Source of the DNA: an uncultured virus (IMG/VR IMGVR_UViG_3300034198_030405) | Taxonomy: Duplodnaviria > Heunggongvirae > Uroviricota > Caudoviricetes | Direction: 5' to 3' (one strand) | Virus record (IMG/VR): IMGVR_UViG_3300034198_030405 | DNA: 64,000 nucleotides | Made by a program: the position numbers and the translations under genes | Notes under the pieces: model-generated | What the model was told of the DNA's origin: nothing | Databases searched by the model: none | The model's input: the letters and a program-made list of their open reading frames with translations, nothing else | Shown here: positions 10,535 to 61,178 of the stretch, piece by piece | Layout of the letters: each line of letters opens with the position of its first letter | Position numbering within the stretch: the stretch's first letter is position 1

Positions 10535-11176
10535 TTAATAACGAGTCTGCGCAAATTCAATGAATTTATAAAATTCAGCTCTACTTGCACCGCTTTCATC
10601 ATGAAATGCACCACTTACACGAGCTGTTCTCATTGTTGAGTCATGCTTAATTCCGCGGTTGCTGCAACATGTATGATTGCATTCAATCATCACTGCTACA
10701 CCTTTGTTTTTTACGCAAACCTTATCAACATAATCAAAAATTTGAGATGTTAATGCTTCTTGTACCTGCGGCCGACGAGCAAACCAGTCAACAATGCGAT
10801 TGAGCTTGCTGAGACCTATGACTTTACCTTCTTTTGATGGAATATATGCTACATGTGCACGCCCAGTGAACTGCAAATGATGATGAGAACACATGGATAC
10901 AACTTTTATATTATTCTGGCACACCATTCCATCATATCCATCAATATTATCAAACGATGTAATATTTGGCGGCGATGAATAACATCCTGCAATAAGATCA
11001 TTTACCCAGGCTTTAGCAACACGACGAGGTGTATCTGCACTATTAGGATCTTGTTTGAAGTCAAACTTCAATGCAGTCATAAACTCTGCATAATGTTTTG
11101 ATGCTTCATCAATCATTTTTTGACGTTCTTCTTCTGATTGCGGTAGGTTACCGTTGGCGTATTTGAGCAATTCCAT
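10535..11176 (-). CDS. folE: GTP cyclohydrolase I
   Basis: DTPRRVAK, SMCSHH, GLSKLNRIV, RRPQVQE, HTCCSNRG. Confidence 0.95.
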   Translation of the reverse strand: MELLKYANGNLPQSEEERQKMIDEASKHYAEFMTALKFDFKQDPNSADTPRRVAKAWVNDLIAGCYSSPPNITSFDNIDGYDGMVCQNNIKVVSMCSHHHLQFTGRAHVAYIPSKEGKVIGLSKLNRIVDWFARRPQVQEALTSQIFDYVDKVCVKNKGVAVMIECNHTCCSNRGIKHDSTMRTARVSGAFHDESGASRAEFYKFIEFAQTRY

Positions 11177-12124: not shown

Positions 12125-12129
12125 GTGAT

Positions 12130-12756
12130 ATGTTTACAAGTACTAAAGTAATAGAGTTAGGATCATGTGCTTTTCGTCAGTGGAGAGCAAAACATTCACA
12201 CTGTCAATTCATTCATGGCTACCAGCTTAAAGCAAAGTTTTGGTTCAGATGTGAAGAGTTGGATGATAAAAATTGGGCGGTTGATTTTGGCAGCCTTAAA
12301 GAGCTCAAAAAACAACTACAATATATTTTTGATCACACGTATTGTGTAGCTGCTGATGATCCAGCAATTGATCAATTTAGAGCATTAGATGCAGCAGGCA
12401 TCATTCAGCTTCGTGTTTTTGAAAAAGGCGTTGGAGTAGAAAGAGCTGCTGAAAAATGCTTTGAAATTGCATCACAGTTTCTTAAAGAGAAATATGGTGA
12501 ACGCTGCAGCGTCAATCAAGTTGAGGTGTTTGAGCACGAAGATAATTCTGCAATTTATAGTAATTGCTTTGGCTGCAAGGATAGGGAAATTCCTGAAGAT
12601 GGTGGTTATTCAGAAGCAGCGGATGTTATTACAATTCATGAAATAACTCCGCTACCTCAGACTGAAACTACACGCAATGGAGGTAGACCAGCAAATGTTG
12701 GCTCACATGTATCAACTGGCAAAAGTGATTGGTTCAAGGGTACCTCTTGGGGTTAA
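12130..12756 (+). CDS. queD: 6-carboxytetrahydropterin synthase
   Basis: SCAFRQWRA.HSHCQFIHGY, VDFG.LK, FDHT, VFEHEDNSA. Confidence 0.9.
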   Translation: MFTSTKVIELGSCAFRQWRAKHSHCQFIHGYQLKAKFWFRCEELDDKNWAVDFGSLKELKKQLQYIFDHTYCVAADDPAIDQFRALDAAGIIQLRVFEKGVGVERAAEKCFEIASQFLKEKYGERCSVNQVEVFEHEDNSAIYSNCFGCKDREIPEDGGYSEAADVITIHEITPLPQTETTRNGGRPANVGSHVSTGKSDWFKGTSWG

Positions 12757-13552: not shown

Positions 13553-14425
13553 ATGAGTGATATTGTTAACAACTACAACCATTTGGTAATTTCTGAAGAT
13601 TTCTATTCTGTACAGGGAGAAGGCATCACAACAGGCTGCCCCTCTTATTTTATTCGTCTTAAAGACTGTAACCTTACATGCGGTGCAACTCGAGCTGTTG
13701 CAAAACAAGTGAAGGGTGCAGGCTTAGGCAACACAGATCCAGGGTCTTTTAAAGGAGACTTACATGCAGCAGGCAAAGCAACCTGGACATGTGACTCTCT
13801 ACCTGTGTGGCTTTTCGGTGAAAAGAAGCCGTTTGAATATCTCATCAATCGTTGGAGAGAACATAAAAATTATGATGGCTCTACAATGTTAGATTGGATT
13901 TTGAGTGGCCAGACTCATCTGATCTGGACTGGTGGTGAGCCAACCCTACCCAAGCATCAAGAATGCATTGCAAATTTTATTCATCATCTTGCTGATGTTT
14001 ATCAAGCAGAAGACTCTGCCATTGATTATGGTGTATATAATGAGATTGAGACCAATGGCACACAATACATTGATGATATGCTGTATGATGAACTTCATCA
14101 AATCAACTGCAGTGCGAAGTTAAGTAACTCTGGCCTTGATAAAGAAGATCGCATTGTACCTGAAGCCATAGAGCGCATTAAAAACCACTGGAATTCACGA
14201 TTCAAGTTTGTAATTTCAACAGAAGAAGACATTAAAGAAATTATTACTGATTATCTTGTACCGTTTAACATCCCCATGACTCAAGTTGTGTGCATGCCGG
14301 GAATGGATAGTCGGGAAAATTTTCATGAACGCACTGCTTTCGTGCTAGAAATGGCAAAGAAATATGGATTTACCGGACTGTCTCGCCTGCACGTGAGTGC
14401 ATGGGATAAAACATGCTCTGTATAA
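13553..14425 (+). CDS. queE: 7-carboxy-7-deazaguanine synthase (radical SAM, with an insertion in the Cys motif)
   Basis: FYSVQGEG, RLKDCNLTC...WTCDS, TGGEP, ETNGT, RLHV. Confidence 0.88.
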   Translation: MSDIVNNYNHLVISEDFYSVQGEGITTGCPSYFIRLKDCNLTCGATRAVAKQVKGAGLGNTDPGSFKGDLHAAGKATWTCDSLPVWLFGEKKPFEYLINRWREHKNYDGSTMLDWILSGQTHLIWTGGEPTLPKHQECIANFIHHLADVYQAEDSAIDYGVYNEIETNGTQYIDDMLYDELHQINCSAKLSNSGLDKEDRIVPEAIERIKNHWNSRFKFVISTEEDIKEIITDYLVPFNIPMTQVVCMPGMDSRENFHERTAFVLEMAKKYGFTGLSRLHVSAWDKTCSV

Positions 14426-14466
14426 CGAGCGAGGGAATACCCGATCAATGTTTTTCCGACGAACAT

Positions 14467-14919
14467 ATGAATAATGAAGATACAAAGCATGTAAGCAAAG
14501 TAATAATTGTTTATAAAGGTAAGCTGTTGCTTTTGCTGCCGATGAACAAACAAAAGTGGCATTTGCCCGGTGGACACATTAAACGTGGTGAGACGTCACA
14601 AGAAGGTGCAAGAAGAGAAGTGAAAGAGGAGACACAACTATTAATTACATCATTCACAAGTGTATATAGATTGCATAATTTTGAATTATTTTTGTGCAAA
14701 ACCAGTACAAATAATGTTAAACTGAGCAGTGAGCACAGATCTTACAAATGGGTTACATCCAATGAAGCACTACATAAAATGTATATCACAAAAGAAACTG
14801 AAAGAGATCTCACTGAAGCAATCAACAAACAATTGATTGTACTGCCTGCACAAAAACAGAAAATAACAAAGAAAAAACAACAACAAGATGTTGATTTAGA
14901 GGATGAGGAAAATAAATGA
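14467..14919 (+). CDS. NUDIX hydrolase
   Basis: Nudix box PGGHIKRGETSQEGARREVKEET. Confidence 0.9.
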   Translation: MNNEDTKHVSKVIIVYKGKLLLLLPMNKQKWHLPGGHIKRGETSQEGARREVKEETQLLITSFTSVYRLHNFELFLCKTSTNNVKLSSEHRSYKWVTSNEALHKMYITKETERDLTEAINKQLIVLPAQKQKITKKKQQQDVDLEDEENK

Positions 14920-14923
14920 AATT

Positions 14924-15151
14924 ATGGCAAAAGAACAACCCAGTACAGTCCCACATTCCGTAGTTGAGATAAACACAACAGTTGAATATCAAGGCGAAAA
15001 GCTTCAATCAGTCATTAGATTCAACGTAGAGGAGCTTGCTCAAATTGTAAAAAATAAGGGCGCAGAAGCTGCTAACAAAAGCATGAAAACACTAACTGAT
15101 CAGATCTACGCAAAGACTAGCGAAAATCTTAAGCAGCTTATCAATAAATGA
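14924..15151 (+). CDS. Hypothetical protein
   Basis: Short ORF coupled to the next gene. Confidence 0.55.
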   Translation: MAKEQPSTVPHSVVEINTTVEYQGEKLQSVIRFNVEELAQIVKNKGAEAANKSMKTLTDQIYAKTSENLKQLINK

Positions 15152-15882
15152 GAATTGCATTTAGCGGTACTGCGAATACCGGAAAAACCACACTAATCAA
15201 AGATTTTTTGACAGTATGGCCCATGTATTCTACACCGTCAAAAACATATAGAGACATCATTGCTGAAAGTAGTATCACACATAGCAAGAATGTAAACAAG
15301 CAAGGTCAGGAAGCAATTCTTGATTTTATGGTTGATAGTATGCAGGGTAAAACCGCAGATGATCACATTGCATATGATAGATGCCCACTAGATAACGTTA
15401 TATATTCTCTCTGGGCGAATGAAAAAACGTCATCAGATATTGATGACGTTTTTATTGAAAAATGTGCTAAAAAGGTAAGAGAATCTCTAAAGAATCTAGA
15501 CATTATTTTTTGGATTCCTTATACTGAGCGCATTACAATTGCACAAGATAATATGAGAGAAACAGACAGTGTTTATATCAAGGAGATTGATAATCTCTTT
15601 GAAGTAATTTATAATCAATACATATGCAATGATAAGTTTTTCCTGTTTGACAATGAGGATAGGCCTGCAATAATTCCTATTCATTCTTCTGATAGATTTA
15701 TGCGAATCAAAGAAATCGCAAACTATATACATGAAAATGGTAGCATGGTTGTACCAGATGACTCATGGGTTGAAGAACTGCAAAATGCAACTAAACCAGA
15801 AGATGCACAGCATGCTGTTGAAGATTTAATTAAACAGCAAAAGCAGCAATTGCTCAAAGATACAGGAATTATAGTACCGTAG
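15148..15882 (+). CDS. P-loop nucleotide kinase-like protein (AAA_28/dNMP kinase-like)
   Basis: RIAFSGTANTGKTT, YDRCPLD. Confidence 0.75.
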   Translation: MRIAFSGTANTGKTTLIKDFLTVWPMYSTPSKTYRDIIAESSITHSKNVNKQGQEAILDFMVDSMQGKTADDHIAYDRCPLDNVIYSLWANEKTSSDIDDVFIEKCAKKVRESLKNLDIIFWIPYTERITIAQDNMRETDSVYIKEIDNLFEVIYNQYICNDKFFLFDNEDRPAIIPIHSSDRFMRIKEIANYIHENGSMVVPDDSWVEELQNATKPEDAQHAVEDLIKQQKQQLLKDTGIIVP

Positions 15883-16717: not shown

Positions 16718-16746
16718 TTGTATGTATTTATGCTATATTATCTATA

Positions 16747-24530: not shown

Positions 24531-24533
24531 ATT

Positions 24534-26247: not shown

Positions 26248-26280
26248 TTGAAATTTAAAACTAAGATATTATCTTAACAG

Positions 26281-30564: not shown

Positions 30565-30832
30565 TAGCATAAGTCATTTTTTTAGGCGCTCGTTGAATTT
30601 CTATTTCAATGAGCGCTTTTATTTTGCTCATTTTATCTCGACCACCAACATTCTCTTCATCTACAGATGGTGTTAGCATTTGAGGTCCCTTGGAGGGATC
30701 AGTCATTCCACTCCACTCAGGTGTACTGTTGCGCCTGTCATATTCTGCCTTGAAGCGCTGACTTGCAGGCTGCATAGTTTCTATGTTACGGTAATAATTT
30801 TCAAGGATGCATCTAAAATCAGTATTATTCAT
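30521..30832 (-). CDS. Hypothetical protein
   Basis: ORF with a DFRCILENYY N-terminus. Confidence 0.55.
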   Translation of the reverse strand: MNNTDFRCILENYYRNIETMQPASQRFKAEYDRRNSTPEWSGMTDPSKGPQMLTPSVDEENVGGRDKMSKIKALIEIEIQRAPKKMTYAIRVLKKLLNQMDSL

Positions 30833-30865
30833 GTTGAGAAGTGGTGTGGTTGTATATATTTAGTC

Positions 30866-31333
30866 ATGGATAAACATTATCTTAGCTGGCATGAATTTGA
30901 TGATCTCTGCAACTCACTACAAAGCAAAATTAAACAGTATGAAGCAGATAATAATTTATCATTTAACTGCATCATTGGATTGCTGCGAGGCGGTGTAGTG
31001 CCTGCAGTGTGGCTAGCGCATAATTTAAATTTACCAATGAGAATCATTGGTATAAAAACTTATGAGAATATGAAGCAAACAGATACCATTGAATTATACA
31101 ATGACATAGGTAAAGAACTTGCTGACTTTGTAGATAGCAGAAATGTTTTGATTGTAGATGATATTTGTGATACAGGTCGAACAATTTCCTGCATCAAAGA
31201 GTATCTCAAAAATAACAGCAACTGCAGCAATCATATTTTCGCAACGCTACACCGGGCACATGATTCATATTATGTGCCTGATATATTTGCTGTAGAAAAC
31301 TCACAATGGGTTAGATATCCCTGGGAAGCATAA
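30866..31333 (+). CDS. Type I phosphoribosyltransferase (Gpt-like)
   Basis: GLLRGG, VLIVDDICDTGRT PRPP-binding loop, WVRYPWE. Confidence 0.88.
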   Translation: MDKHYLSWHEFDDLCNSLQSKIKQYEADNNLSFNCIIGLLRGGVVPAVWLAHNLNLPMRIIGIKTYENMKQTDTIELYNDIGKELADFVDSRNVLIVDDICDTGRTISCIKEYLKNNSNCSNHIFATLHRAHDSYYVPDIFAVENSQWVRYPWEA

Positions 31334-32112: not shown

Positions 32113-32136
32113 TTTTACAATTTAGCAGGTTATATT
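32109..32136 (+). promoter_or_regulatory. Sigma70-like promoter TTGATT-N16-TATATT, 5 nt before the nrdA ATG
   Basis: Same hexamers and spacing as the queD promoter. Confidence 0.65.
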
Positions 32137-32141
32137 GATAT

Positions 32142-34628: not shown

Positions 34629-35462
34629 TCAATCAAGCGCTGGATCTTTATTCACTCTTTCGTGAAATATTTGAGTCCAGCGCTTGACCATTTTTCGCTT
34701 GATTGCTTCAGGGTAATCTTCCCATAGCCTATCAACTCTCAATTCATCAATGCATGCATTGATGAAGCGTGGGAGAAATTTAGGTGATGAGAAGTACCTT
34801 GCAAAAATAGGGTTGCCAATAATGCTTGCAGCTGCTTCTGTTATGCGGCTATTAATTTCTTGATCTGAAAACGTATAGTTTATATCTCGCTGTTGCTGTG
34901 CAGTAAGTTTTTCTCCTGTCTCATGTTTCCGTATTTGCTCTGCACGCTTATGCACAAAAGGATTATAAAAGTGCTGTATTTCATGAGTAAATATTTTTGC
35001 AAAGATGTTGGTTGTAATTAAATCCATTACAATGTTAAGGAAAATATTCATTGTAATGCGGTCATCAAAAGCATAAGCATTCTTTCCAACTTTTTTGATG
35101 TATGGTTTTAACACATCATAATCAATTATTTGGTGCTTATATAGTTGAATAATATTTGCAACATTTATGCCCATGGATCCATCGACTACTAATTTGCGGC
35201 GGCGTTTGTGACCTGCCGGTGTAACTACAGTGGTACGCTTGTCCTGATGCATATTTATCATGTAAGCCTGTGAATCATCTTTTCTAGATAATGCAGCTTT
35301 ATAAAAGGTAACTATTATATCTGGTGTTCCATGCACAATAGTTACTAAACTATTACCCGCAACTTCATCTGAAGGAGCCGGTGGATTTTTAAGAAGGTTA
35401 CGATACAGTTGTTCACTGAACTTTAACGCATCATTATAATAATTTTCAAATAACATTCGCAT
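34629..35462 (-). CDS. Hypothetical protein with HExxH (zincin-like) motif
   Basis: FTHEIQH...YTFSDQEINSR. Confidence 0.55.
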   Translation of the reverse strand: MRMLFENYYNDALKFSEQLYRNLLKNPPAPSDEVAGNSLVTIVHGTPDIIVTFYKAALSRKDDSQAYMINMHQDKRTTVVTPAGHKRRRKLVVDGSMGINVANIIQLYKHQIIDYDVLKPYIKKVGKNAYAFDDRITMNIFLNIVMDLITTNIFAKIFTHEIQHFYNPFVHKRAEQIRKHETGEKLTAQQQRDINYTFSDQEINSRITEAAASIIGNPIFARYFSSPKFLPRFINACIDELRVDRLWEDYPEAIKRKMVKRWTQIFHERVNKDPALD

Positions 35463-37439: not shown

Positions 37440-39863
37440 TTCAGGCATTGCGACTTCAGTAATTTCTTTTTTACCATTTGTAACAACACCAGCTGTAGCT
37501 GGTGTTGTTCCTTTGTTCATTTGCATCGCAGATCTTCTCAGACTAATGTTGTTATCAACTAGATTGAGCGGAAGATTTCTAAAATTGTGTGAATGTGGAA
37601 CTGTGATGATGCTATCCGGATCGTTAAACAAACCCGCTGCAAGTACACATGAATATACCGGCAACCATGTATTAACGACATACACAAACCCAATTACCTT
37701 AGGATTTATGTTGTCTGGTCTGCCATACACTTCAATTAACTCTGTCTCTTGAATTTCAGCAGGAGCAGTCACATGATTGACATACAGTTCACCTTCTACA
37801 TACGTACCACCGCCAATAACTACATTATTTTTAACACCAAGGCTGCAATCAATGCCTATTTGCTTGTTTTGTGTCTGACTTAGCGTAATTACATCTGCAG
37901 TAACATTGAACCTGCCACCAGATGTAATTTTAACATCTCCAGAAGAACTAACGATAATTTCATTGGATCCAGATACTACCACTTGTGATCCAGCAATGTC
38001 GAAAGTTCCTGTTGTGCGGAGGCCGATGCCACCACTGCCAGCTGTACAGTAAAAGCCATTGCAAATAGTCAAAGTATAATTGCCGCACGGATATTTACCG
38101 TCATTAGCAACACGCTCCACAAGTGGGCTTGGCTTTTGAGACGCAAATACTGTTTCAGAGCAAATAAGCATTTCATTAAATTCCATGCGACCTACAGGAT
38201 CAACACGAACACTTGGTGAATCATTAAAAGCAGCACCTACTATTTCATATTTATGACGTATGATTTGTGTATTATCATCACCACCGTTACCAAATTTTTT
38301 CTCATACTGCAGCATTCGCTCTGATTGAGCTGTTTCTAAATCTTTCAAGTTATTATATTCAGTATCCGGTGCCCATTCACCATCTTGTGTTGAAGAGGAA
38401 AGTTCAGCATCTGTACCAGAAAAATTATTTGAACCGTTTTCTCCTGCAGCAATTAAAAATTCTTCTGGAGGAATAGTTGCTGGTTGCGCAAAAGATGAAG
38501 GCGTTAATACTTGCTCTACTGCTGTTTCGAGTGTGCTAGCTTGGTTGCCAGTTGCATCACTTGCTTTGGGTATCTCAACATATATTTCGTTTGGTATAGG
38601 TGCCGATGTAACTGCAACTGGCGTTTGAGCAAGAATTGGATTGTCAGCAAAAGTTCCTTCTTGGGTCTGACTGATGCTGCCTGCAGGTGGTAGCAGAGAC
38701 GATACTAATGGTGCACCGGCGCTACGTTTGATAGCAAATCTCGCTCTTGTATCTGCAATGGGTCTATTGAGTTCAACCCATTGTTGATAAGCATTAATAT
38801 TTTTCCAATCACCAATGCGACACCATCTAGTTTCGTCTACACCAATATTATATACCTTTCTTACATGAACATTTTTTGAATTTTCAACGGTCTCAAATTG
38901 AGATTTAAGTATTAATTTTTGATCGTTGCCAGTGCATAAAGTTGTATAAGCAAGTTTATGCATTTGTATAAATGAGCCGCTTGGGTGAGTTAATTTTAAT
39001 GATTCATTATTATCTGTATCAACTACTTCAATGGTGCCTCCTTTTGAATTGAGTACCATTTTGCCTTTTTTATACTTCTGTGGATCATTACTTCCGGAGT
39101 TTTCATAAGCTCCAGGGTAATTGATGCCTGCATTTGGGATATCAGTATTGACCATCTCATTGATTTTTTGCCAGTCATTTTTATCATAACTATAAGCAAA
39201 ATAAATGGGTGTCTCAATGCTACCATTCTCAAAAAATATCCACACGCTTGCACCTACATCAGGCACAGCAAATAAACCTTTAGTACAGTTGCTATATGTT
39301 GATGGCTTGAATTGAAATGCATATGGATTTGATTCAGGCATCATATCGTCAGTAAATGCACCAAAGCCATCTTTGAGTTGTCCAGTTGGGGTTTCGTATA
39401 AAAACCCAGGCTTCTCACCAATGCCATCCACATTAAGAGATCCACCCGCGCCAGGAAGTTTATTGGTGCTACTGTCACTAATTGTTGCGATATCATCTTT
39501 TGCTGAATACACTCCAGAAGAGCCGCTGCCTACAAGTGATGCAGCTTGTTCAGCCCATGGAATAATTTTTTTTGCATATTTTTCAATTGAACTAAGAGAT
39601 GTCTTGTCTTTATAAATGTTTGAGCCAGCGGGAAATCTAAAGCTCTTATCTACATCACTTGATTCACCATACCACTCTTTAATCTGAGGTGCAAGTGCGG
39701 GTATATATACCTTGACACGTCCACGACGCTCCGGGTCATTGTTTTGAATAACTATGCCTCGATAAAATCCAAGATGCTTTGTTCCATATATATTTGTCTC
39801 CAGCACCATTTGTTTAATATTTGTTGACTCCTCACTTGGGAGTAACTGATCGTTTGTATTCAT
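37401..39863 (-). CDS. gp5/VgrG-like baseplate hub (spike) protein
   Basis: OB fold YRGIVIQNNDPERRGRVKV, VPDVGASVWIFFENG, THPSGS, beta-helix-like C-terminus, HSH. Confidence 0.75.
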   Translation of the reverse strand: MNTNDQLLPSEESTNIKQMVLETNIYGTKHLGFYRGIVIQNNDPERRGRVKVYIPALAPQIKEWYGESSDVDKSFRFPAGSNIYKDKTSLSSIEKYAKKIIPWAEQAASLVGSGSSGVYSAKDDIATISDSSTNKLPGAGGSLNVDGIGEKPGFLYETPTGQLKDGFGAFTDDMMPESNPYAFQFKPSTYSNCTKGLFAVPDVGASVWIFFENGSIETPIYFAYSYDKNDWQKINEMVNTDIPNAGINYPGAYENSGSNDPQKYKKGKMVLNSKGGTIEVVDTDNNESLKLTHPSGSFIQMHKLAYTTLCTGNDQKLILKSQFETVENSKNVHVRKVYNIGVDETRWCRIGDWKNINAYQQWVELNRPIADTRARFAIKRSAGAPLVSSLLPPAGSISQTQEGTFADNPILAQTPVAVTSAPIPNEIYVEIPKASDATGNQASTLETAVEQVLTPSSFAQPATIPPEEFLIAAGENGSNNFSGTDAELSSSTQDGEWAPDTEYNNLKDLETAQSERMLQYEKKFGNGGDDNTQIIRHKYEIVGAAFNDSPSVRVDPVGRMEFNEMLICSETVFASQKPSPLVERVANDGKYPCGNYTLTICNGFYCTAGSGGIGLRTTGTFDIAGSQVVVSGSNEIIVSSSGDVKITSGGRFNVTADVITLSQTQNKQIGIDCSLGVKNNVVIGGGTYVEGELYVNHVTAPAEIQETELIEVYGRPDNINPKVIGFVYVVNTWLPVYSCVLAAGLFNDPDSIITVPHSHNFRNLPLNLVDNNISLRRSAMQMNKGTTPATAGVVTNGKKEITEVAMPESENFVDQPIFQA

Positions 39864-40426
39864 AGATAATTTTGTAAATTCATCTGCATTTTTGCTTTGT
39901 CAAAAAATTGTAGATTTTTATTAACATAGTTATTAAGAGTTCCTGAATTTCCACCCACAGCATCGTATAAGCTATTGTTAAATTGTGTCAGCTGCTGTGC
40001 AGGTTTTTGCAGCGTTTTTTGTAAATTAGTTGCAGATACAAGAATACAGGAAAGCATATTTGCACCTGCAAAAGTACAATTTTCAGTATTTTTGATGTAA
40101 CTTATTGTGTCAATTACTTTTTTACGCAGTGCTGCAACGGTGAGAAAAATTGCTTTGAAAGTATTAATTATGCTGAGAATATCTCTGTATAATTGCTGAA
40201 GCGTCTGTGATATTAAATTTCCGATGAGTGCTATTTCATTCTGAACAATGGTATTAATAATATTTGCTGCAGCGCCTAAAACAGCAGCACCAAAAGATTT
40301 TAAACCTCCACCTTTAAATAAAGAACCAATCAATGATGGTATACACATGATGCCTTTTGCAACTTTGGTAAGTTGATCAAAAGTACTTGTAGCATTGTTA
40401 AGAAAACTGCCTATTTTTGGTAGCAT
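39860..40426 (-). CDS. Hypothetical protein (likely baseplate-associated)
   Basis: Start placed after TAAATA; coupled to the gp5-like gene. Confidence 0.55.
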   Translation of the reverse strand: MLPKIGSFLNNATSTFDQLTKVAKGIMCIPSLIGSLFKGGGLKSFGAAVLGAAANIINTIVQNEIALIGNLISQTLQQLYRDILSIINTFKAIFLTVAALRKKVIDTISYIKNTENCTFAGANMLSCILVSATNLQKTLQKPAQQLTQFNNSLYDAVGGNSGTLNNYVNKNLQFFDKAKMQMNLQNYL

Positions 40427-40532
40427 ATGTATATATTTAAGTTGTATAATGGCGTTCAAATACAAAAGAAAAATTACAACATCTAGCATGCGTTTTATGT
40501 AGATTTCTTGTTAATATAGACTATCATATCAC

Positions 40533-41330
40533 ATGAAAATCAAAGTAGCTCACGAAGCACCCATTAGCATCATGAAAGAAGTTGATGATTTAACAGACTA
40601 TTCATATGCGTTAGTTCATTTATTTGAGACACACCCGCAGTATTACGAATACTTTTTTTATGCTCGTCAGCAAGGCAGAGATGTACTGCTTGATAATAGT
40701 ATTTTTGAGTTGGGTGAAGCATTTGAATCGGAAAAATATGCTGAATGGATTAAAAAACTACAACCAACATATTATGTTCTTCCTGATGTACTAGAAGATG
40801 GCTATAAAACTATTGAGAACTTCATTAAGTTTGCATCTACATATGATGATCTCCCAGGCATGAGAATTGGGACAATTCAAGGTAAAACTTATGGTGAGAT
40901 TGTTGATTGCTATAAGTTTATGTCGGATAATGCTAATATGATTGCCATTAGCTTTGATATGTCCTACTATCAATTCACTGGGCTGGGTAATACTAAACTT
41001 GAACTTCAATGCAATGGCAGAATTTCACTCATTGATGATTTGATTCACGATGGTATCTGGAATCATAACAAACCACATCACTTGCTGGGGTGTTCGCTTG
41101 CTCGTGAATTTTCTAATTATATCCGCAAAGGCGTAGGCAACATCTACTCTGCAGACACAAGCAATCCTGTCGTGTGTGGCATCAAGGGATATGCATACAA
41201 CGGAGAATTTGGTTTAGAGATTAAACCGTCACAGAAACTTGTTGAAATGATTGATGCAGAGGTTACAGATGAACAAATGAGAAAGATCAAATACAACATT
41301 AAAAACTTCAAACACATTATTGCAGGATGA
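40533..41330 (+). CDS. TGT-fold guanine transglycosylase, DpdA-like
   Basis: LLDNSIFELG, LPDVL, TIQG, HHLLGC and SADTSNP match TGT-barrel motifs; first gene of the operon ending in queF. Confidence 0.65.
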   Translation: MKIKVAHEAPISIMKEVDDLTDYSYALVHLFETHPQYYEYFFYARQQGRDVLLDNSIFELGEAFESEKYAEWIKKLQPTYYVLPDVLEDGYKTIENFIKFASTYDDLPGMRIGTIQGKTYGEIVDCYKFMSDNANMIAISFDMSYYQFTGLGNTKLELQCNGRISLIDDLIHDGIWNHNKPHHLLGCSLAREFSNYIRKGVGNIYSADTSNPVVCGIKGYAYNGEFGLEIKPSQKLVEMIDAEVTDEQMRKIKYNIKNFKHIIAG

Positions 41331-41887
41331 AAGAAAATAAACAAAAAACAAAGCGTTGTTGGGTAGCAATGTTCTCGCAGACGGGTAGTGAGCTGCATGC
41401 AGTATGCTCAGAGCTTGGCATTTGGCCAGATGCAGTCATTACAAATGCTGAAGAAGTGGATATAAGCAAGTGGGGTAATACCAATTTAATTTGGTTATCT
41501 TATAAAGATATTATCAACAGCAAAACATATAAATCGTTATTCAATGCTTTTTCACCGTATGAAGATCCAGTTGTTACTTTGCATGGGTGGCTAAAAATTG
41601 TACCTGGTGATGTTTGTGAACAGCACCAGATCTTCAATGGACACCCAGGAGATATTGTAAAGTTTCCTCAACTCAAAGGTAAAGATCCTCAGCAAAAAGC
41701 ATATGATCTGAAGATGCCTATGAGTGGATGTGTTATTCATAGAGTCACATCTGAAATTGATGGTGGTCCCATTGCATCATATGACAAAGTAACAATTGCT
41801 CATTGCAAAAATGCTGATGAAGTGATTAATACTCTCAAAAAAACTTCTATTGAACAGTGGAAGAAATTCATTAACACAATATTGTAA
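41327..41887 (+). CDS. PurN-like formyltransferase (candidate DpdN)
   Basis: AMFSQTGSE, LHGWLKIV, FNGHPG, SGCVIHRVTSEIDGGPI. Confidence 0.8.
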   Translation: MKENKQKTKRCWVAMFSQTGSELHAVCSELGIWPDAVITNAEEVDISKWGNTNLIWLSYKDIINSKTYKSLFNAFSPYEDPVVTLHGWLKIVPGDVCEQHQIFNGHPGDIVKFPQLKGKDPQQKAYDLKMPMSGCVIHRVTSEIDGGPIASYDKVTIAHCKNADEVINTLKKTSIEQWKKFINTIL

Positions 41888-41891
41888 CAAC

Positions 41892-42449
41892 ATGGTAATA
41901 TCATTCACAGGAGCAGGTAGCACTGGTAAATCATCTCTTCTTAAATTGTGCAAGCAAGAATTTGGTGATAATTTTACATATGTAGAAGAGGTTACTCGTC
42001 TTGTCAAGAGACAGTATAATGTACCCATCAACGAGCAGGCAGGTGATATGACTCAATTGCTAATACTCAATCAACATCTTACCAATTCGTTCATTAAAGG
42101 TGATGTTATTATGGATAGATGCATCGTTGATGGGTTAATATATACGCACTGGCTTTATAAACATGGAAAAGTAAGCACGTGGGTGCATGATTATGCATGG
42201 CGTTTAGTTAGTTTGCTTATTAACAAAGTGGATATCTTTTTCTATTGTTCAGCAGATTTTGACTTGGTTGATGATGGTGAAAGATCAACCAGCACTGATT
42301 TTAGAAATGATATTGCACAGCAGATTGATTCTTATTTAAATAATTATTGCAAACCAGAACAAATTGTTAAATTATCTGGTAGCATTGAACAGCGCATGCA
42401 CACAATCAAAGAAACACTCAAACAATATGGCACAAACCCTACTCGATAA
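41892..42449 (+). CDS. P-loop nucleotide kinase-like protein (AAA_28)
   Basis: ISFTGAGSTGKS, EEVTR, MDRCIVD, DDGER. Confidence 0.75.
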   Translation: MVISFTGAGSTGKSSLLKLCKQEFGDNFTYVEEVTRLVKRQYNVPINEQAGDMTQLLILNQHLTNSFIKGDVIMDRCIVDGLIYTHWLYKHGKVSTWVHDYAWRLVSLLINKVDIFFYCSADFDLVDDGERSTSTDFRNDIAQQIDSYLNNYCKPEQIVKLSGSIEQRMHTIKETLKQYGTNPTR

Positions 42450-43359
42450 CAGCAACATTAGCGTACATCTTGGCAAGACCTCGGAGTACAAGTCTCAGTA
42501 TGATGCATCTCTTCTTGTAAGAGAGCCTCGTAGCAACAACCGCAAGCATCTAGATATTTCAGATGATAACATACCTTTCTATGGTAATGATACATGGAAT
42601 GCTTATGAGATATCTGCACTCACACACAATGGATTGCCTGTTGCAGGCATTGGAAAGATTGTGTATCCTTGCTCTAGTAAGTATATTGTTGAATCTAAAT
42701 CCATCAAATTGTATTTCAATTCGTTCAACATGACCAAATTGGCTAAAACAGCAGATGAAGTACGCGACGCCATTGCAGCACATGCATCACGTGATTTGAG
42801 TCAGTTGCTAGAGACCGATGTTCAAGTCAAAGTCTTCAGCAATTATGAAGCAATTTGTGAGCAAACATCTGCAGTAGATGAGTATATGATTGATGAGTAT
42901 GAGACTCTTGAAAATATTTATGATGATGATGGTGAGGTGACTGTGTATCAAGAGACACCTAAACTGCTTAAAGTCATTGATCATACTGATCATCGCGGTT
43001 ATAACCGCATGTCATACAAGTATCATAGTGCATTACTCAAAAGTAATTGTCGTGTAACTTCGCAGCCAGATTTTGGTGATATTTTGATTCATTACAACGG
43101 TAGCAAGACTGTGACTCCTGAATCACTGCTGCGCTACATCATTTCTTTCCGTGATGAGTGCCACTTTCATGAGGAGATTTGTGAGACCATTTACAAGCGT
43201 TTGCATGATGTACTGCAGCCAGATGCATTGTCAGTCATTTGTTTGTATGCTCGTCGCGGCGGCATTGATATCAATCCGGAACGTGTTTCATGTGAGACAC
43301 TACTGCACGGCTCGTTGAGTAATATTGAATATTGCCATATTAAAACAACAAAACAATAA
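42427..43359 (+). CDS. queF: NADPH-dependent preQ0 reductase (bimodular)
   Basis: DTWNAYE, ESKSIKLYFNSF, KSNCRVTSQPD, FHEEICE, YARRGGIDINP. Confidence 0.93.
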   Translation: MAQTLLDNSNISVHLGKTSEYKSQYDASLLVREPRSNNRKHLDISDDNIPFYGNDTWNAYEISALTHNGLPVAGIGKIVYPCSSKYIVESKSIKLYFNSFNMTKLAKTADEVRDAIAAHASRDLSQLLETDVQVKVFSNYEAICEQTSAVDEYMIDEYETLENIYDDDGEVTVYQETPKLLKVIDHTDHRGYNRMSYKYHSALLKSNCRVTSQPDFGDILIHYNGSKTVTPESLLRYIISFRDECHFHEEICETIYKRLHDVLQPDALSVICLYARRGGIDINPERVSCETLLHGSLSNIEYCHIKTTKQ

Positions 43360-43396
43360 TTTGTTGCTTGTAACAGCAACAATGGTGGACGCCCCT

Positions 43397-43428
43397 ACCC
43401 GAGCAGCTTTGTGCTGCTCGGGTTTTTT
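43397..43428 (+). terminator. Rho-independent terminator after queF
   Basis: 11-bp stem ACCCGAGCAGC/GCTGCTCGGGT followed by a T run; a second hairpin TTGTTGCT/AGCAACAA lies at 43361-43382. Confidence 0.85.
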
Positions 43429-43468
43429 GTGTTGATTATTTTGCAAAAAGCATATAACATGTCTATAT

Positions 43469-44386
43469 ATGAAATATAATTATTCACTCGGTCTGTGCTG
43501 CATTTCTCTTAAATGTAAAGAGCAAGGCATTAAGTTTCAAACTATGACCTACACGCGGTTTGCTAAACTGCCGCGCAAACAAGCAGAATCAATTCTTGCA
43601 CTGCGCATCATCAACAACTTTAAAGCTGTTGCTAAAATTGTACACATGTGCAAGGACATGGGCATTGAGCGATATCGCATACCGTCAGACCTCGCACCGG
43701 TAATCAACCACCCTCTTGTCAACATGACACTACTCGACTTTGATGATGCAGATAAAATCTTCGATGCCATTGATGAAGCTAAGCAGGCCATTATTGATAC
43801 TAACATTCGAACCAGTGCGCATCCTTCTGAATTCATCTCCCTAACAAGTGAAGATGACGGTGTTGTTGCAAACTCTATTAGAGACCTAGAGCAACATGGT
43901 GAGATCTTTGATCTCCTTGGGTTGCCCCGGGGATACGAGTCTCCTCTTAATATTCACATTCGACAACAAGGCGACGTGGAGAAACTGGGGCAAACGTTTC
44001 GTCGCAATCTATCCAAATGTTCCGACTCTGTACGCAAGCGGTTAGTTGTTGAAGTGAATGACAACAAGCAAGGTCAATGGACTATTCAAGAGCTTTACAA
44101 TCAATTGTACAAGACTGAACAAATTCCGGTAACATATGATAACTTGCATCATGAAATGATCGGAGATGCCATGAGTCATCAAGAAGCATTTGATGTAGCA
44201 TATAGCACATGGCCTTGTCTTCCTGTATTTCACTACAGTGAAGGAATTGATGGTACTCGCAAGCATGCAGACTATGCTAATCTGTTGCCTCAAGATTTCG
44301 GTATGCCTGTTGATTACGAAGTAGAACTCAAAATGAAAGATTTAGCCATTGAAAAAATGCTTTTAAAAATGCGCGCAGCAGCATAA
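43469..44386 (+). CDS. uvsE: UV-damage endonuclease (UvsE/UVDE)
   Basis: LGLCCIS, YRIPSDL, SAHP..F, NIH, RLVVE.ND, YDNLHH, FHYSE, KHAD, EVELKMKD. Confidence 0.88.
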   Translation: MKYNYSLGLCCISLKCKEQGIKFQTMTYTRFAKLPRKQAESILALRIINNFKAVAKIVHMCKDMGIERYRIPSDLAPVINHPLVNMTLLDFDDADKIFDAIDEAKQAIIDTNIRTSAHPSEFISLTSEDDGVVANSIRDLEQHGEIFDLLGLPRGYESPLNIHIRQQGDVEKLGQTFRRNLSKCSDSVRKRLVVEVNDNKQGQWTIQELYNQLYKTEQIPVTYDNLHHEMIGDAMSHQEAFDVAYSTWPCLPVFHYSEGIDGTRKHADYANLLPQDFGMPVDYEVELKMKDLAIEKMLLKMRAAA

Positions 44387-44397
44387 ATAAAAGCATT

Positions 44398-44853
44398 ATG
44401 CCAGCAAAATCAGAAAAACAACGCAAATTCTTCGGTGCCGTTATGGGTGCTAAAAAAAGCAAAGGCAAAGCAACAGGTGCCGCAGCCAAAGTAGCTAAAA
44501 AAATGCCCAAGAAAGAAATCAAGAAATTTCTAAAAAAGGAATCTGCATTTGCCAATGAATTAAATGCTTTAGTTGAACGTGCACAGCCAGGAAATGTTTT
44601 TGATTTTGCATATCAACATGTGATGTCATTATATCTTGAAAAACTTGATGATGTTGGTGAAGAGGATGATGATATCAATAATGATGGTAAAGAAGATAAA
44701 ACAGATGAATTTCTCAAAAATCGTCGCAAAAAAATAAACAAAGCTATTCACGGAAAAGAAGAAGCAGAAGAGCACATGCATTGCAAATATGCTGAAGAAG
44801 GCTGTGATTGCAGTGAGTGTAAAGAATGCAAAGCAAATCAAGACTGTGAATAA
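44398..44853 (+). CDS. Hypothetical phage protein
   Basis: MPAKSEKQRKFFG start; DINNDGKEDKTD motif; TAAATA upstream. Confidence 0.65.
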   Translation: MPAKSEKQRKFFGAVMGAKKSKGKATGAAAKVAKKMPKKEIKKFLKKESAFANELNALVERAQPGNVFDFAYQHVMSLYLEKLDDVGEEDDDINNDGKEDKTDEFLKNRRKKINKAIHGKEEAEEHMHCKYAEEGCDCSECKECKANQDCE

Positions 44854-44855
44854 TT

Positions 44856-45023
44856 ATGGAAATCTTTGCTGAAATATTTACATACGTGCTTGAAGAAAAA
44901 GTTAAAAAGCCCAAGCATGATGCATGTTATCGCAAAGCCAAGAGCAAATACAAAGTATTTCCAAGTGCATATGCAAGTGGATACATTGCAAAATGTCGCA
45001 AACGTGGAGGCAAATTAAAATGA
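44856..45023 (+). CDS. Small basic phage protein (55 aa, below the cutoff)
   Basis: Hand translation ...DACYRKAKSKYKVFPSAYASGYIAKCRK, a motif familiar from T4-like phage proteins. Confidence 0.65.
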   Translation: MEIFAEIFTYVLEEKVKKPKHDACYRKAKSKYKVFPSAYASGYIAKCRKRGGKLK

Positions 45024-45337
45024 TCAAATCTTACAAAAGAATTGAACCATATAGACTAGGAGATAAGAATTATAAAGTAAAGCGAACCTATGATGGCCGC
45101 TTTGCTGTCTATGATTATACAAAAAAAGATTACATAGTTGCAACATTTGATGCAGACGAAGAATCTGAAGCTTATGAATCAGCAGAAAATCGCAACAAAG
45201 AAAATGATGCGAATTTTATGCAGCACTTAAAAAATATAGCTGATTTAAAAAAGCAAGCTCATAGCTTCACACCTGAATCGTTTTTTCGGTATATGGATGG
45301 TTTGATTGTAGAAAACATGAAGACATTCATGCGTTAA
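45020..45337 (+). CDS. Hypothetical protein
   Basis: ATGA-coupled start MIKSYK. Confidence 0.55.
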   Translation: MIKSYKRIEPYRLGDKNYKVKRTYDGRFAVYDYTKKDYIVATFDADEESEAYESAENRNKENDANFMQHLKNIADLKKQAHSFTPESFFRYMDGLIVENMKTFMR

Positions 45338-45422
45338 TGAGTGCACTGAAAATAATATTAAAAAGAATTAACCTGCAACAGCAACAATGCATAAATGCCT
45401 TGCATAGCGAATAAATAAATGT

Positions 45423-45809
45423 ATGCCAGCTTTTAATTTTGAACTCCGCGATGCAACTGCATATAATCCACAGCCACTTAATGCAACCCTTTCTGCATCT
45501 AATGGTACCATTGTCGTAAATTCTTTTGGAACCATTAATAGTAAACGAGTTGTAGCGGTTTTATACAATAATAATTTCACCAATGCAGATACCACCAAGG
45601 TGACACTTTCTGCAGCATATGGCTTGAGCATTACTGTAAACAGGAGTTTCCAGGGTCAAACCATTGCTCTCGAATTCCCTGATCGTACAAGTTCCCTCGT
45701 GACTGTAACAACTGCATTTGGAGTATCCAAAGTTCAGAATGTATCAGCAGCAAATACGGATAATATAAGCCCCAACACACGTAGATTGTGGGCACTTGAA
45801 ATGAATTAA
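45423..45809 (+). CDS. Hypothetical protein (possible small virion protein)
   Basis: TAAATA upstream; S/T/N-rich and beta-like. Confidence 0.6.
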   Translation: MPAFNFELRDATAYNPQPLNATLSASNGTIVVNSFGTINSKRVVAVLYNNNFTNADTTKVTLSAAYGLSITVNRSFQGQTIALEFPDRTSSLVTVTTAFGVSKVQNVSAANTDNISPNTRRLWALEMN

Positions 45810-46294: not shown

Positions 46295-47224
46295 CTATCT
46301 AACATAAACAAATAGCCATTCAGCATTTTGCTTAGCTTTATTAGTAAAGTGTGAAAATGTCTTGCCTAATTTTGTTGTTTGAATTAATCTGTATCCCTGC
46401 AGCTCAAATGCAGATTGTACATGATGCTTGTAGGTGCTGTTTATAACTACGCCCCAAATATTTGCAACGCTATTACCAATCATGCAGTTAAGAAATTCTT
46501 GATAATCATTTGTATCCCTAAACTTTTTTTTACTATATTGTTCAATGTTATAGTATGGCGGACACGTGAAGCATGCGTCATTTTTTGTATAAATTTTTGT
46601 GCAGTCGTTATTGGAAACAGAGTGATGCGCATTACAAAAATTAATAATTTTTTCAGCACCAATACATGATGCTTCCCATGCATCATTGTAATGATAGTTA
46701 ATATTTAGTGCACCAAGTATTCTGTGGCCCCACCCACCGCAGGGATCATAAACATCTTTTATATTGTATTGCTGTATAAATTTACGCAACCATAATGGAG
46801 AGAAATGCGAAAAACCGCTACAAATACCAGATATCTTAAACCCTCGAAGTATTTCAGCATTGGTAAATTCGTTTTTGTTTAAATATTTTTTTCTATTAGC
46901 AATTAATTTATCTCTAATTTCTAGATGTTGCCATAGCCGGCGCTCATTATGATAAAAATGTGGCTGAAAGTTTAAAACAATTTTATTGTTACGAGGAGTT
47001 GCGTCATAAGTTCCATCAGATATTTTATACATATTTAATTCCCGCTGAAGCTGCTGTTCTGTATAACACAATGCCAGACAATCATCATTGCTTCTATCAT
47101 TTGAAATCCACCTGTATATAGTAGCAGCAGAAATAATACCCTGCATTAAATCAATGATTGCTTGCTTAGGCATTGATTTGGCCATGAGCATAACTTGCTG
47201 CTTTAATTCAGTTAATTTGATCAT
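46295..47224 (-). CDS. Putative amino-DNA methyltransferase
   Basis: VYDPCGGWGHR (motif I) and FTCPPYYNIEQY (motif IV-like). Confidence 0.75.
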   Translation of the reverse strand: MIKLTELKQQVMLMAKSMPKQAIIDLMQGIISAATIYRWISNDRSNDDCLALCYTEQQLQRELNMYKISDGTYDATPRNNKIVLNFQPHFYHNERRLWQHLEIRDKLIANRKKYLNKNEFTNAEILRGFKISGICSGFSHFSPLWLRKFIQQYNIKDVYDPCGGWGHRILGALNINYHYNDAWEASCIGAEKIINFCNAHHSVSNNDCTKIYTKNDACFTCPPYYNIEQYSKKKFRDTNDYQEFLNCMIGNSVANIWGVVINSTYKHHVQSAFELQGYRLIQTTKLGKTFSHFTNKAKQNAEWLFVYVR

Positions 47225-48008
47225 GTAATGTGTTTGATATTTTTGTATCTGTTTCTTGAAATTTAGCGTTTTTGGTTAAATTTTCTATTTCCCATAGAGG
47301 CTGGTAATTAGAGAAATGGCATATATCTTTGAGATGTTCTGGTGTAAGTTGTTGCAAGCAGCAAAGCGGTTTAATGTGATCTAGATGCCAGCATTGCTCT
47401 CCTCTGCCATGATTGTCCCAGGTCATTCCTGGTCTAAATTGTTTTTCAATGTGTTGTTTGAACTCTTCAATTGTACAGCCTAAATATACAATTGATGGAT
47501 GATGTTTGGAGCAATTAGCATATTTGATGGCCTGTCTAATATGTTCTCTAATGTTGCATTTCATTTTATGCAATGGATCGGTGTTGTATTTTTCGCGTAA
47601 ATGTGGTTTACTTTCAACATAGTGCTTTTGTGCTCTTTGTTTGTATTGCTCCTTGTTATCTAACCGGTGCTGCTTAATGCGAATATTATTTTGTTCTTTT
47701 TTATTTGTGCTCAAACTTTTATACCACTGTTTCCAGTATCTAGCTGTATCACCTGATTCAGCTCGCATTTTTCTATACTCTCTTTTGCGATCATTGACAT
47801 CAACATCCTGCTTTGTTTTTTTGTAACTCTCATTGGACATCTTTTTGATCTTGTTGCGTAGCTCTGGATTTATCCAATATTTTACAGTTTCAGGCCACAC
47901 GTTAAATTTTGCTTTTACAGACCATATACCGTGCATATTTGCATATTCAATTATCTCTCTCTTTTGCTCTTCGGTCCATGTTTTGTTCTTTCTAAATTGC
48001 AACGACAT
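47208..48008 (-). CDS. HNH endonuclease
   Basis: YLGCTIEEF, GMTWDNHG, WHLDHIKP, HFSNYQPLW..ENLTK; TATAAATA 5 nt upstream. Confidence 0.85.
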   Translation of the reverse strand: MSLQFRKNKTWTEEQKREIIEYANMHGIWSVKAKFNVWPETVKYWINPELRNKIKKMSNESYKKTKQDVDVNDRKREYRKMRAESGDTARYWKQWYKSLSTNKKEQNNIRIKQHRLDNKEQYKQRAQKHYVESKPHLREKYNTDPLHKMKCNIREHIRQAIKYANCSKHHPSIVYLGCTIEEFKQHIEKQFRPGMTWDNHGRGEQCWHLDHIKPLCCLQQLTPEHLKDICHFSNYQPLWEIENLTKNAKFQETDTKISNTLHDQIN

Positions 48009-56986: not shown

Positions 56987-56990
56987 AATG

Positions 56991-58769: not shown

Positions 58770-58774
58770 AATTA

Positions 58775-59542: not shown

Positions 59543-59569
59543 ATTTGTATTTAGAGAATAAATAGATAC

Positions 59570-61149: not shown

Positions 61150-61178
61150 ATGTGTATTTAACCAGTGTATATTACATT

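Follow-up and report, generated by a model that had tools for sequence, protein, structure and literature searches.

Phages that carry the DNA transglycosylase DpdA3 are the closest described systems to the locus reported here, a four-gene cassette in a 64,000-nt stretch of DNA from an uncultured virus (IMG/VR IMGVR_UViG_3300034198_030405; the whole of this stretch is called the window below). In the DNA of immuto_2-6A, a phage with a Flavobacterium host, 345,000 residues of 7-(formylamino)methyl-7-deazaguanine (fdPreQ1) per 10^6 nt and no deoxyguanosine (dG) peak were reported (PMC10516641). The same source reports complete replacement of guanine in Campylobacter phages of the CP220 type, and gives the extent of modification as 100% of G with DpdA3 versus <0.1% of G with the bacterial enzyme bDpdA. 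A cassette for fdPreQ1 is already published (PMC10516641, 2023); what is new here is the type of phage, a freshwater T4-like myovirus, and probably the phylum of its host.

The cassette occupies positions 40533-43359 on the + strand and consists of dpdA3, dpdN, a kinase gene and queF (ORF1 to ORF4), packed with overlaps or gaps of a few nucleotides (Table 1). An earlier note, made from the letters of the window alone, had described a four-gene operon with a dpdA-like, a purN-like, a kinase and a queF gene between a promoter and a terminator, had placed folE, queD and queE about 30 kb away and queC outside the window, and had predicted fdPreQ1 in place of guanine in DNA. The same-strand open reading frames (ORFs) are as described, a strong terminator closes them, and the proposed promoter is literally present in front of them. 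The fdPreQ1 prediction likewise gains support from gene identities, folds, conserved residues, synteny and the completeness of the pathway. Our reading, which we consider likely, is that the cassette would form the late half of a pathway by which the phage puts fdPreQ1 in the place of guanine in its virion DNA. In such a pathway FolE, QueD, QueE and QueC would convert GTP to 7-cyano-7-deazaguanine (preQ0), which QueF would reduce with NADPH to 7-aminomethyl-7-deazaguanine (preQ1). DpdA3, a stripped-down enzyme with the fold of the tRNA-guanine transglycosylases (TGTs), would swap guanine for the deazapurine by the double displacement of TGT and DpdA, and DpdN, a paralogue of PurN in which the Asn-His-Asp set is retained, would formylate the aminomethyl group, with 10-formyl-tetrahydrofolate as the presumed donor. 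On the model of immuto, the replacement of guanine would probably be complete.

The relatives of ORF1 place it with DpdA3. No Pfam or NCBIfam family was matched at E up to 0.01, the Pfam TGT family PF01702 included, and none of the 120 homologues listed has a precomputed Pfam domain. The protein matches phrog_19058 (1.7e-50), and a collection of 5.8 billion proteins contains 3479 homologues of it at E up to 1e-3. A tblastn comparison of ORF1 with 50,697 isolate-phage records returned 20 records at E up to 1e-5. The Flavobacterium immuto phages account for four of these (identity 50.6% across 99% of the query, 2e-72), and in them the gene is annotated 'DNA guanine transglycosylase ... DpdA', and 14 are Campylobacter phages of the CP220 type (39.2-39.5% identity; CP220 gp056 39.5%, 2e-46). 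The remaining two are one Chryseobacterium phage (25%) and one Weizmannia phage (a partial match). The named DpdA3 relatives of ORF1 are immuto YP_010114477, the CP220-group protein and, weakly, the founding DpdA3, phiST CGPG_00065 (24.8% identity, E 0.06, in a tblastn run at E up to 1). The earlier note had allowed for a grouping with tRNA-specific TGTs; by sequence the protein groups instead with the DpdA3 proteins of immuto and the CP220-type phages. On these comparisons, ORF1 is a member of the DpdA3 subfamily (Hutinet/Cui et al. 2023) and not a canonical TGT.

The fold of the protein was examined on an AlphaFold (AF2) model, which has a mean predicted local distance difference test score (pLDDT) of 92.6. 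The top Foldseek matches are all tRNA-guanine transglycosylases (E about 2e-8, template modelling (TM) scores 0.64-0.69). With VIA, about 230 of the 265 residues superimpose at a root-mean-square deviation of about 3 A on the archaeosine TGT 1iq8, the Zymomonas TGT and the DpdA 7ui4 (Z 17.4-18.2); for 7ui4, a DNA preQ0 insertase, Z is 17.6. In the model, therefore, ORF1 is a TGT barrel, as the earlier note had supposed, and it was the fold comparison alone that settled this question.

The conserved residues of ORF1 can be set beside those of a characterized enzyme. In bacterial DpdA, Asp95 (with Phe99) is described as the general acid/base, Asp130 as the reader of the base edge, Leu236 as the stacking residue and Asp256 as the nucleophile, and the three aspartates Asp95, Asp130 and Asp256 are reported to be invariant across TGT and DpdA (PMC10164549). 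An alignment of 30 ORF1 homologues has as its invariant positions D54, F58 (four residues on), D85, Q116-G117, H183-L184-L185-G186 and D208-T-S-N-P, which resemble in order and spacing the DpdA residues Asp95/Phe99, Asp130, Leu236 and Asp256. Judged by motif and spacing, D208 is predicted to be the nucleophile, D54 the general acid/base, and D85 and Q116 the residues that read the base edge. The same alignment of 30 contains no invariant cysteine cluster and no CxCxxC...H zinc motif, and the DpdA3 proteins are acidic (pI 4.66-6.51; 5.29 for the protein of the window). DpdA3 shares the TIM barrel with the bacterial DpdA/DpdB system of Salmonella (7ui4) and with TGT, and on this prediction it would also have counterparts of the three catalytic aspartates. 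It differs from them in its length (265 residues versus 358-577), in having neither a zinc motif nor a ParB-like DpdB partner, and in its divergence, the structure-based identity being 10-14% with no match at the level of sequence.

ORF2 was found to be a paralogue of PurN. It matches PF00551 (1.6e-8) and fails the PurN equivalog model TIGR00639, with 39.2 bits against a cut-off of 150.1. Its identity is 43% to the immuto DpdN YP_010114479 (1e-48) and 25% to E. coli PurN (b2500). The residues N104, H106 and D145 are invariant in DpdN and align with N106, H108 and D144 of E. coli PurN, which we take to be the formyltransferase catalytic residues; on that assumption N104, H106 and D145 would be their counterparts in ORF2. 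An N-terminal loop, S-Q-T-G-S-E-L, aligns with S-G-N-G-S-N-L of PurN, so that S-x-x-G-S is kept, and N13 of PurN is replaced in DpdN by a nearly invariant Glu (E22). The likeness to PurN therefore covers the fold family, the Asn-His-Asp set and the loop, whereas the low identity, the change of N13 to E22 and a gene context of deazaguanine rather than purine synthesis set the protein apart. The earlier note had called the protein PurN-like and had considered that it might be a normal glycinamide ribonucleotide (GAR) transformylase. The identities and the failed equivalog model bear out the first and speak against the second: as judged from these comparisons, ORF2 is a paralogue of DpdN type rather than a standard GAR transformylase.

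The assignment of ORF4 follows from both Pfam domains of the reductase, QueF_N (2.5e-34) and QueF (2.5e-24), which score above their cut-offs. The full-length model TIGR03138 gives 3e-78 and 263 bits, slightly below its cut-off of 293, and the identity to the immuto QueF is 45%. The translation contains the stretch E-S-K-S-I-K-L-Y, presumably the QueF motif, and a cysteine within S-N-C-R-V-T-S-Q-P-D that we take to be the catalytic one.

The genes for the early steps are located elsewhere in the window, and their Pfam, NCBIfam and phrog matches (Table 1) bear out the earlier identification of folE, queD and queE, which lie 26-30 kb upstream of the cassette. No queC was found in the 64,000-nt window, in which a tblastn search with the QueC of a related record, G002, gives nothing better than E 0.35; this agrees with the earlier note, which had also suggested that the gene be sought in the rest of the genome. 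The window aligns at 97-99% identity to G002, a viral record of 203,774 bp that is 96% complete, and there a canonical queC (PF06508 4.5e-51, with the N-terminal SGGxDS motif) is encoded about 6 kb past the left end of the window. QueC is present in all three long relatives that were searched (G002, G003 and G004), and the nearest relative record, G001, a 50.9-kb fragment, contains none. Because FolE, QueD, QueE and QueF are encoded in the window and QueC in these three relatives, the preQ1 pathway is complete in the phage lineage.

The comparison with immuto extends to gene order. Its locus reads DpdA3, a small ORF, DpdN, a 'thymidylate kinase' and QueF, and the window has the same order without the small ORF; the kinases are 31% identical, and immuto also encodes FolE, QueD, QueE, QueC and a phosphoribosyltransferase (PRTase). 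The two differ in that the QueD, QueE, PRTase and FolE genes of immuto lie just upstream of its cassette, whereas the precursor genes of the window are distant; in that a PolA gene adjoins the immuto cluster, whereas the phage of the window is a T4-like myovirus with PolB; in that a MazG/PRA-PH gene stands two genes upstream of the immuto dpdA3, with none in the window phage; and in the host, Flavobacterium in the one case and probably a member of the Verrucomicrobiaceae in the other. Campylobacter phage CP220 (Firehammervirus, dADG) resembles the window in its DpdA3 homologue (39.5%) with a homologous AAA_28 kinase (35%) directly after it, and differs in a locus with neither QueF nor DpdN, in its base, 7-amido-7-deazaguanine (ADG), and in an HD-kinase fusion gene upstream. 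A megablast search with the whole cassette against the isolate phages gave zero matches, the relatives being found at the protein level only.

To survey the arrangement more widely, 96 IMG/VR loci (16 + 80) were examined, of which 8 with <2 kb downstream of dpdA3 were dropped; the 88 contigs kept make up one broad phage lineage. In 83 of the 88 a kinase gene follows dpdA3 on the same strand, and three more have one about 7 kb downstream (86/88 in total); the two contigs without it are records only 17-20% complete. DpdN occurs in half of the contigs (44/88), and wherever it occurs it lies between dpdA3 and the kinase (44/44), giving the order DpdA3-DpdN-kinase. It is missing from 39 of the 83 kinase-bearing contigs. 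From their gene content, two common forms of the cassette can be distinguished, one with DpdN, which is the form carried by the window and for which fdPreQ1 is predicted, and one without it, for which dPreQ1 is predicted. In the related contigs the cassette usually stands beside a gp5-like hub gene.

The kinase, ORF3, matches AAA_28 (6.4e-12, 46 bits against a cut-off of 27) and phrog_2107 ('thymidylate kinase', 4e-24). Its AF2 model (pLDDT 90.2) has a P-loop kinase fold with a substrate lid, and its neighbours in Foldseek are the deoxyadenosine kinases 8puu and 2jat, NadR in its ribosylnicotinamide-kinase domain (6gyf, TM 0.77), dCK and thymidylate kinases. A profile search against PDB sequences returns NadR (7.2e-5) and a deoxynucleoside kinase (1.2e-3). 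The Pfam dNK family is reached at 0.0088, below its cut-off, and the fold fits nucleoside, nucleoside monophosphate (NMP) and nicotinamide riboside kinases about equally; the protein could serve NAD salvage. Conserved motifs are G-x4-GK[ST] and DDGxRS, with E33, R36, Q55, H62, N65, D75, R76, D80 and Y84 invariant.

Beyond the lineage of the window, close homologues of this kinase occur among the isolate phages in exactly the 14 Campylobacter and four immuto DpdA3 records, where they adjoin DpdA3. The more distant DpdA3 genes have a different P-loop kinase immediately upstream, of type AAA_18 in phiST (9.4e-7) and AAA_18/AAA_33 in Chryseobacterium phage MA9V-3. A kinase thus accompanies DpdA3 across five or six phage lineages. 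Genes of deoxynucleoside triphosphate (dNTP) pyrophosphatase type also recur in DpdA3 clusters: MazG in phiST, PRA-PH in immuto, an HD-kinase fusion in CP220 and a NUDIX hydrolase in the window. Distant homologues of the cassette kinase (25-29%), annotated as thymidylate kinase, were seen in 33 Streptomyces phages of 120-134 kb. In Bacillus phage BSTP12 (L185, 3336-6692) a weak DpdA3-like ORF (26%, E 0.02, with a faint DUF6610 match) follows QueD, a radical-SAM gene and FolE and stands directly before DNA polymerase I, with a marginal P-loop/dNK ORF upstream; it may represent a further DpdA lineage.

Three further genes of the window are candidate accessories or paralogues. The NUDIX gene overlaps the stop codon of queE and is present in G002; it was looked for in G003 and G004 and not found. 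A paralogue of the cassette kinase follows it in the window and is kept at 44-47% in G003 and G004, lying about 0.8 kb after queE in G003. The third is a purine PRTase of xanthine/guanine type. Immuto and L018 have homologues of it within their deazaguanine clusters, and in L156 and L159 a homologue comes immediately after the kinase; most of the 6-kb DpdA3 flanks showed no PRTase. A search of G002 for MazG, HD, PRA-PH and PolA genes found none.

Several points weigh against the reading of the cassette as the late half of an fdPreQ1 pathway. The modification, how far it goes and the sequence of the steps we infer from the genes, as we do the activity of DpdN and whether the base enters DNA or nucleotides. 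The QueC of this particular phage is supplied by the 97-99% identical relative, and is predicted rather than read in the window. At the level of sequence the link between ORF1 and TGT is faint: a profile of 30 homologues gave 0 matches to PDB sequences at E up to 10, and hhalign against E. coli TGT gave a probability of 5.9%, with the QG and HLxG motifs aligned but with weak statistics and a shifted, unreliable alignment around the nucleophile. Formyl transfer by DpdN is itself described as a proposal in PMC10516641, which also reports that attempts to demonstrate DpdA3 activity in E. coli were unsuccessful. Finally, the published scheme assigns no role to the near-universal kinase. In the main text of PMC10516641 the words kinase, phosphoribosyl, salvage and nudix are absent, and a literature search found no described role for the kinase or the PRTase in DpdA3 systems.

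For the step that brings the base into the DNA, exchange on DNA after replication is the mode given in PMC10516641, on the ground that every modified phage has a DpdA, and it is the mode towards which we incline, if with limited conviction; exchange on free deoxynucleosides or deoxynucleotides has a smaller though real chance, and some other route is improbable. The same genes could yield the same product before replication if DpdA3 carried out the base swap on free deoxynucleosides or deoxynucleotides, or if the PRTase built a ribonucleotide for ribonucleotide reductase (RNR). The NUDIX hydrolase would then yield dGMP or dG, DpdN would formylate, the kinase or kinases would re-phosphorylate, and the polymerase would incorporate the product instead of dGTP. 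Such a course, which we regard as possible and the less probable of the two, would give a task to the kinase that is linked to DpdA3 in the contigs and in isolate phages and is replaced by non-homologous kinases elsewhere, and to the recurring genes of dNTP-pyrophosphatase type. It would also suit the kinase fold, which is that of small-molecule deoxynucleoside and NMP kinases, the small, acidic and zinc-motif-free build of DpdA3, and the confinement of complete replacement to DpdA3 phages. Free ADG nucleoside is reported in infected cells (PMC10516641), and a route through a modified dGTP had been proposed earlier for Campylobacter phages, as a 2019 paper notes (PMC6884629). Against this, every characterized enzyme of the TGT superfamily uses a polynucleotide; the absence of MazG, HD and PRA-PH genes from G002, together with the failure to find the NUDIX gene in G003 and G004, leaves the step that removes dGTP not evident in the lineage; and synteny within the 88 contigs is not independent evidence, since they are one lineage. 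The fold, moreover, cannot separate a nucleoside kinase from an NMP kinase or a NAD-salvage kinase, and NUDIX and MazG genes are common in phages generally. A precedent is offered by hydroxymethyl-dC of T4, which is made by a dCTPase, a dCMP hydroxymethylase and a dNMP kinase. On the pre-replicative course alone, the likeness would lie in a dNTP-cleaving enzyme, a base-changing enzyme, a dedicated kinase and complete replacement; the differences are that no homology exists, that the base is changed here by an enzyme of TGT fold and that the steps here are proposed only. That DpdA3 systems build G-free DNA pre-replicatively in this manner, with a transglycosylase as the base-changing step, is a conjecture that we think rather doubtful. 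If it were true, the window would add a pair of paralogous kinases, of which the first adjoins dpdA3 and the second lies near queE and the NUDIX gene, and an early promoter class shared by all the pathway units.

The kinase could also act around, rather than within, a post-replicative insertion. Each exchange uses one GTP and frees one guanine, as follows from the established chemistry of the pathway, and the PRTase and the kinase might recycle the released guanine through GMP and GDP to GTP, feeding FolE and thereby allowing every G to be replaced. The type of the PRTase (NF006613 1.8e-16) would fit such a cycle, and so would the places of its homologues, in the immuto and L018 clusters and behind the kinase of L156 and L159. 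It is unlikely nonetheless: the kinase fold is that of dNK, the NadR ribosylnicotinamide kinase and thymidylate kinase, with no guanylate kinase among the matches listed, the PRTase is not next to DpdA3 in most 6-kb flanks, and the MazG, HD and PRA-PH genes of other DpdA3 clusters would be left unexplained. The tight and conserved adjacency of the two genes might instead mean that the P-loop protein assists DpdA3 on DNA as an ATPase, a functional analogue of bacterial DpdB, whose ATP hydrolysis bacterial DpdA is reported to need for preQ0 insertion (PMC10164549); the failure of DpdA3 alone in E. coli (PMC10516641) would then be expected. DpdB, however, is described as ParB-like and not as a P-loop kinase (PMC10164549), and ORF3 has a full small-molecule kinase fold with many invariant polar residues and DDGxRS, typical of a substrate pocket, which makes a helper quite improbable. 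Least probable of all is that the genes leave DNA unchanged and raise queuosine precursors for host or phage tRNA, or that the product is plain dPreQ1 and DpdN does another job. Versions limited to preQ1 do exist, as the 39 kinase-bearing contigs without DpdN indicate. ORF1, however, is not a canonical TGT, its characterized relatives are reported from phages without dG in their DNA (PMC10516641), and DpdN, as close as it is to that of immuto, keeps the catalytic residues and its constant place between dpdA3 and the kinase.

The cassette is very common in aquatic phages, and recognizing it should help to annotate them and to foresee where restriction enzymes will fail, although it will not surprise a specialist. 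The mechanistic interest lies in two features that published schemes do not explain: the kinase, and the limitation of 100% replacement to DpdA3.

Table 1. Coordinates of the cassette, of related genes and of promoter-like elements in the 64,000-nt window.
Feature	Position	Strand	Evidence or remark
dpdA3 (ORF1)	40533..41330	+	TGT-fold transglycosylase, 265 aa
dpdN (ORF2)	41327..41887	+	PurN-superfamily formyltransferase, 186 aa
P-loop kinase, nucleoside/nucleotide type, AAA_28 (ORF3)	41892..42449	+	185 aa from ATG 41892
queF (ORF4)	42427..43359	+	two-domain NADPH-dependent preQ0 reductase; ATG 42427 likely start
Intrinsic terminator	43397..43433	+	hairpin 43397-43423, 11-bp stem, 8 G-C pairs, then TTTTTTG
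Promoter-like element TAGATT-N16-TATCAT	40500..40527	+	ends 5 nt before dpdA3 ATG
folE (GTP cyclohydrolase I)	10535..11176	-	PF01227 1.5e-48; NF006824 3e-51; dpdA3 promoter class
queD	12130..12756	+	PF01242 2e-15; phrog_2389 9.7e-36; dpdA3 promoter class
queE (radical SAM)	13553..14425	+	phrog_2076 2.1e-35; NCBIfam QueE models down to 2.4e-11, all below cut-off; dpdA3 promoter class
NUDIX hydrolase	14413..14919	+	PF00293 7.7e-14; best NCBIfam NudB-like/MutT-like, all below cut-off; candidate accessory
Second AAA_28 kinase, paralogue of cassette kinase	15148..15882	+	AAA_28 9.1e-10; phrog_2107 5e-11
Purine PRTase, xanthine/guanine type	30680..31333	+	PF00156 2.2e-16; NF006613 1.8e-16; start codon uncertain; candidate accessory
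Composite promoter site, ORF 559-960	958-994		
Composite promoter site, uvsY	7404-7441		
Composite promoter site, folE	11174-11209		
Composite promoter site, queD	12097-12132		
Composite promoter site, queE	13520-13555		
Composite promoter site, DUF366	26248-26283		
Composite promoter site, RNR large subunit	32109-32144		
Composite promoter site, dpdA3	40500-40535		
ATAAATA-type motif	upstream of 34629-35462	-	
ATAAATA-type motif	upstream of 44398		
ATAAATA-type motif	upstream of 45423		
ATAAATA-type motif	upstream of 47208-48008	-	
ATAAATA-type motif	upstream of 52765-54552	-	
ATAAATA-type motif	upstream of 54584-55735	-	
ATAAATA-type motif	upstream of 55751-56986	-	
ATAAATA-type motif	upstream of 56991-58769	-	
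ATAAATA-type motif	upstream of 59570		
ATAAATA-type motif	upstream of 61179-61508	-	

The ATG of ORF2 overlaps the stop codon of ORF1 by 4 nt. ORF3 was given the ATG that lies 4 nt after the ORF2 stop, and not the TTG at 41850, because its homologues begin there; the queF frame is already open from a TTG at 42364. The terminator ranks best among 6 terminator-like sites in 39500-45500, where shuffled sequences give 3.2 +/- 1.9. The whole cassette was also recovered in contigs of three further runs from three studies, which differ from it by substitutions only, with zero indels; where labelled, these runs are lake or freshwater metagenomes. A 369-nt contig from a freshwater metatranscriptome library spans 40980-41348, running from the last part of dpdA3 into the first part of dpdN, and shows three differences; it is no proof of transcription, because such a library can contain DNA. 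Directly after the terminator lies a gene for a UvdE-type UV-damage endonuclease (43469-44386), and this position is kept in L003, L004 and L104.

The promoter in front of dpdA3 fits the sigma-70 consensus at 8 of 12 positions only and is not listed by a generic scan, which returned 20 sites in the region versus 23.3 +/- 6.1 by chance, no excess. A composite pattern, T[TA]GA[ACT][AT]-N15-17-TAT[ACT][AT]T-N4-9-ATG, occurs nine times in the window versus 1.23 +/- 1.07 (maximum 5) in 100 Markov-1 simulations, an enrichment that is overstated because the pattern was defined after these upstream regions had been viewed. In eight of the nine matches the closing ATG is the start codon of an ORF at least 100 aa long, and among aligned relatives a TATNNT box stands a few bases before the dpdA3 ATG in 13 of 15. 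As far as the recurring motif indicates, the pathway units of the window (folE, queD, queE and dpdA3) would be under one promoter class. With the -10 box 4-9 nt before the ATG, leaderless or near-leaderless early transcripts are predicted. A gene of the DUF366 family (26281-26883; PF04017, 1e-22) also has this early promoter class, and a literature search for DUF366 or PF04017 found no mention. A second motif, of ATAAATA type, occurs 5-12 nt before the starts of structural genes, and of the DUF1501 and PSCyt2/PSD1 genes as well (Table 1). We take it to resemble the late promoters of T4.

At about 36% G+C, the window is part of a T4-like myovirus and encodes the gp23 capsid protein, gp20 portal, gp15 tail-sheath stabiliser, a prohead protease, a UvsY-like protein, a class I RNR and a gp5-like baseplate hub. 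Among the structural genes, at 55751-61182, are two DUF1501 paralogues and a PSCyt2/PSD1 (DUF1549/DUF1553) gene. For the DUF1501 protein at 59893-61179, the best 80 cellular relatives show 53-64% identity; by their titles 77 are from Verrucomicrobiota, one is from a Planctomycetaceae member and two are unlabelled. The verrucomicrobial relatives are mostly from Prosthecobacter, Brevifollis and metagenome-assembled genomes of Verrucomicrobiaceae. This borrowed gene of host type, the only basis for the assignment, suggests a host that probably belongs to the Verrucomicrobiaceae, and it supports the earlier guess of a host from the Planctomycetes-Verrucomicrobia-Chlamydiae (PVC) group. G002 lacks a counterpart of the stretch 56010-58616, in which most of the PSCyt2/PSD1 gene lies, so that this stretch marks an indel between near-identical phages.

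A further block of about 14 same-strand genes lies at 16711-26247. It encodes glycosyltransferases of GT2 type, a GT10 fucosyltransferase-like protein and a DUF5672 protein, together with four methyltransferase-domain proteins and two NAD-dependent epimerase/dehydratases. The block could be a sugar-modification island, with the host surface, the virion or the DNA as its target.

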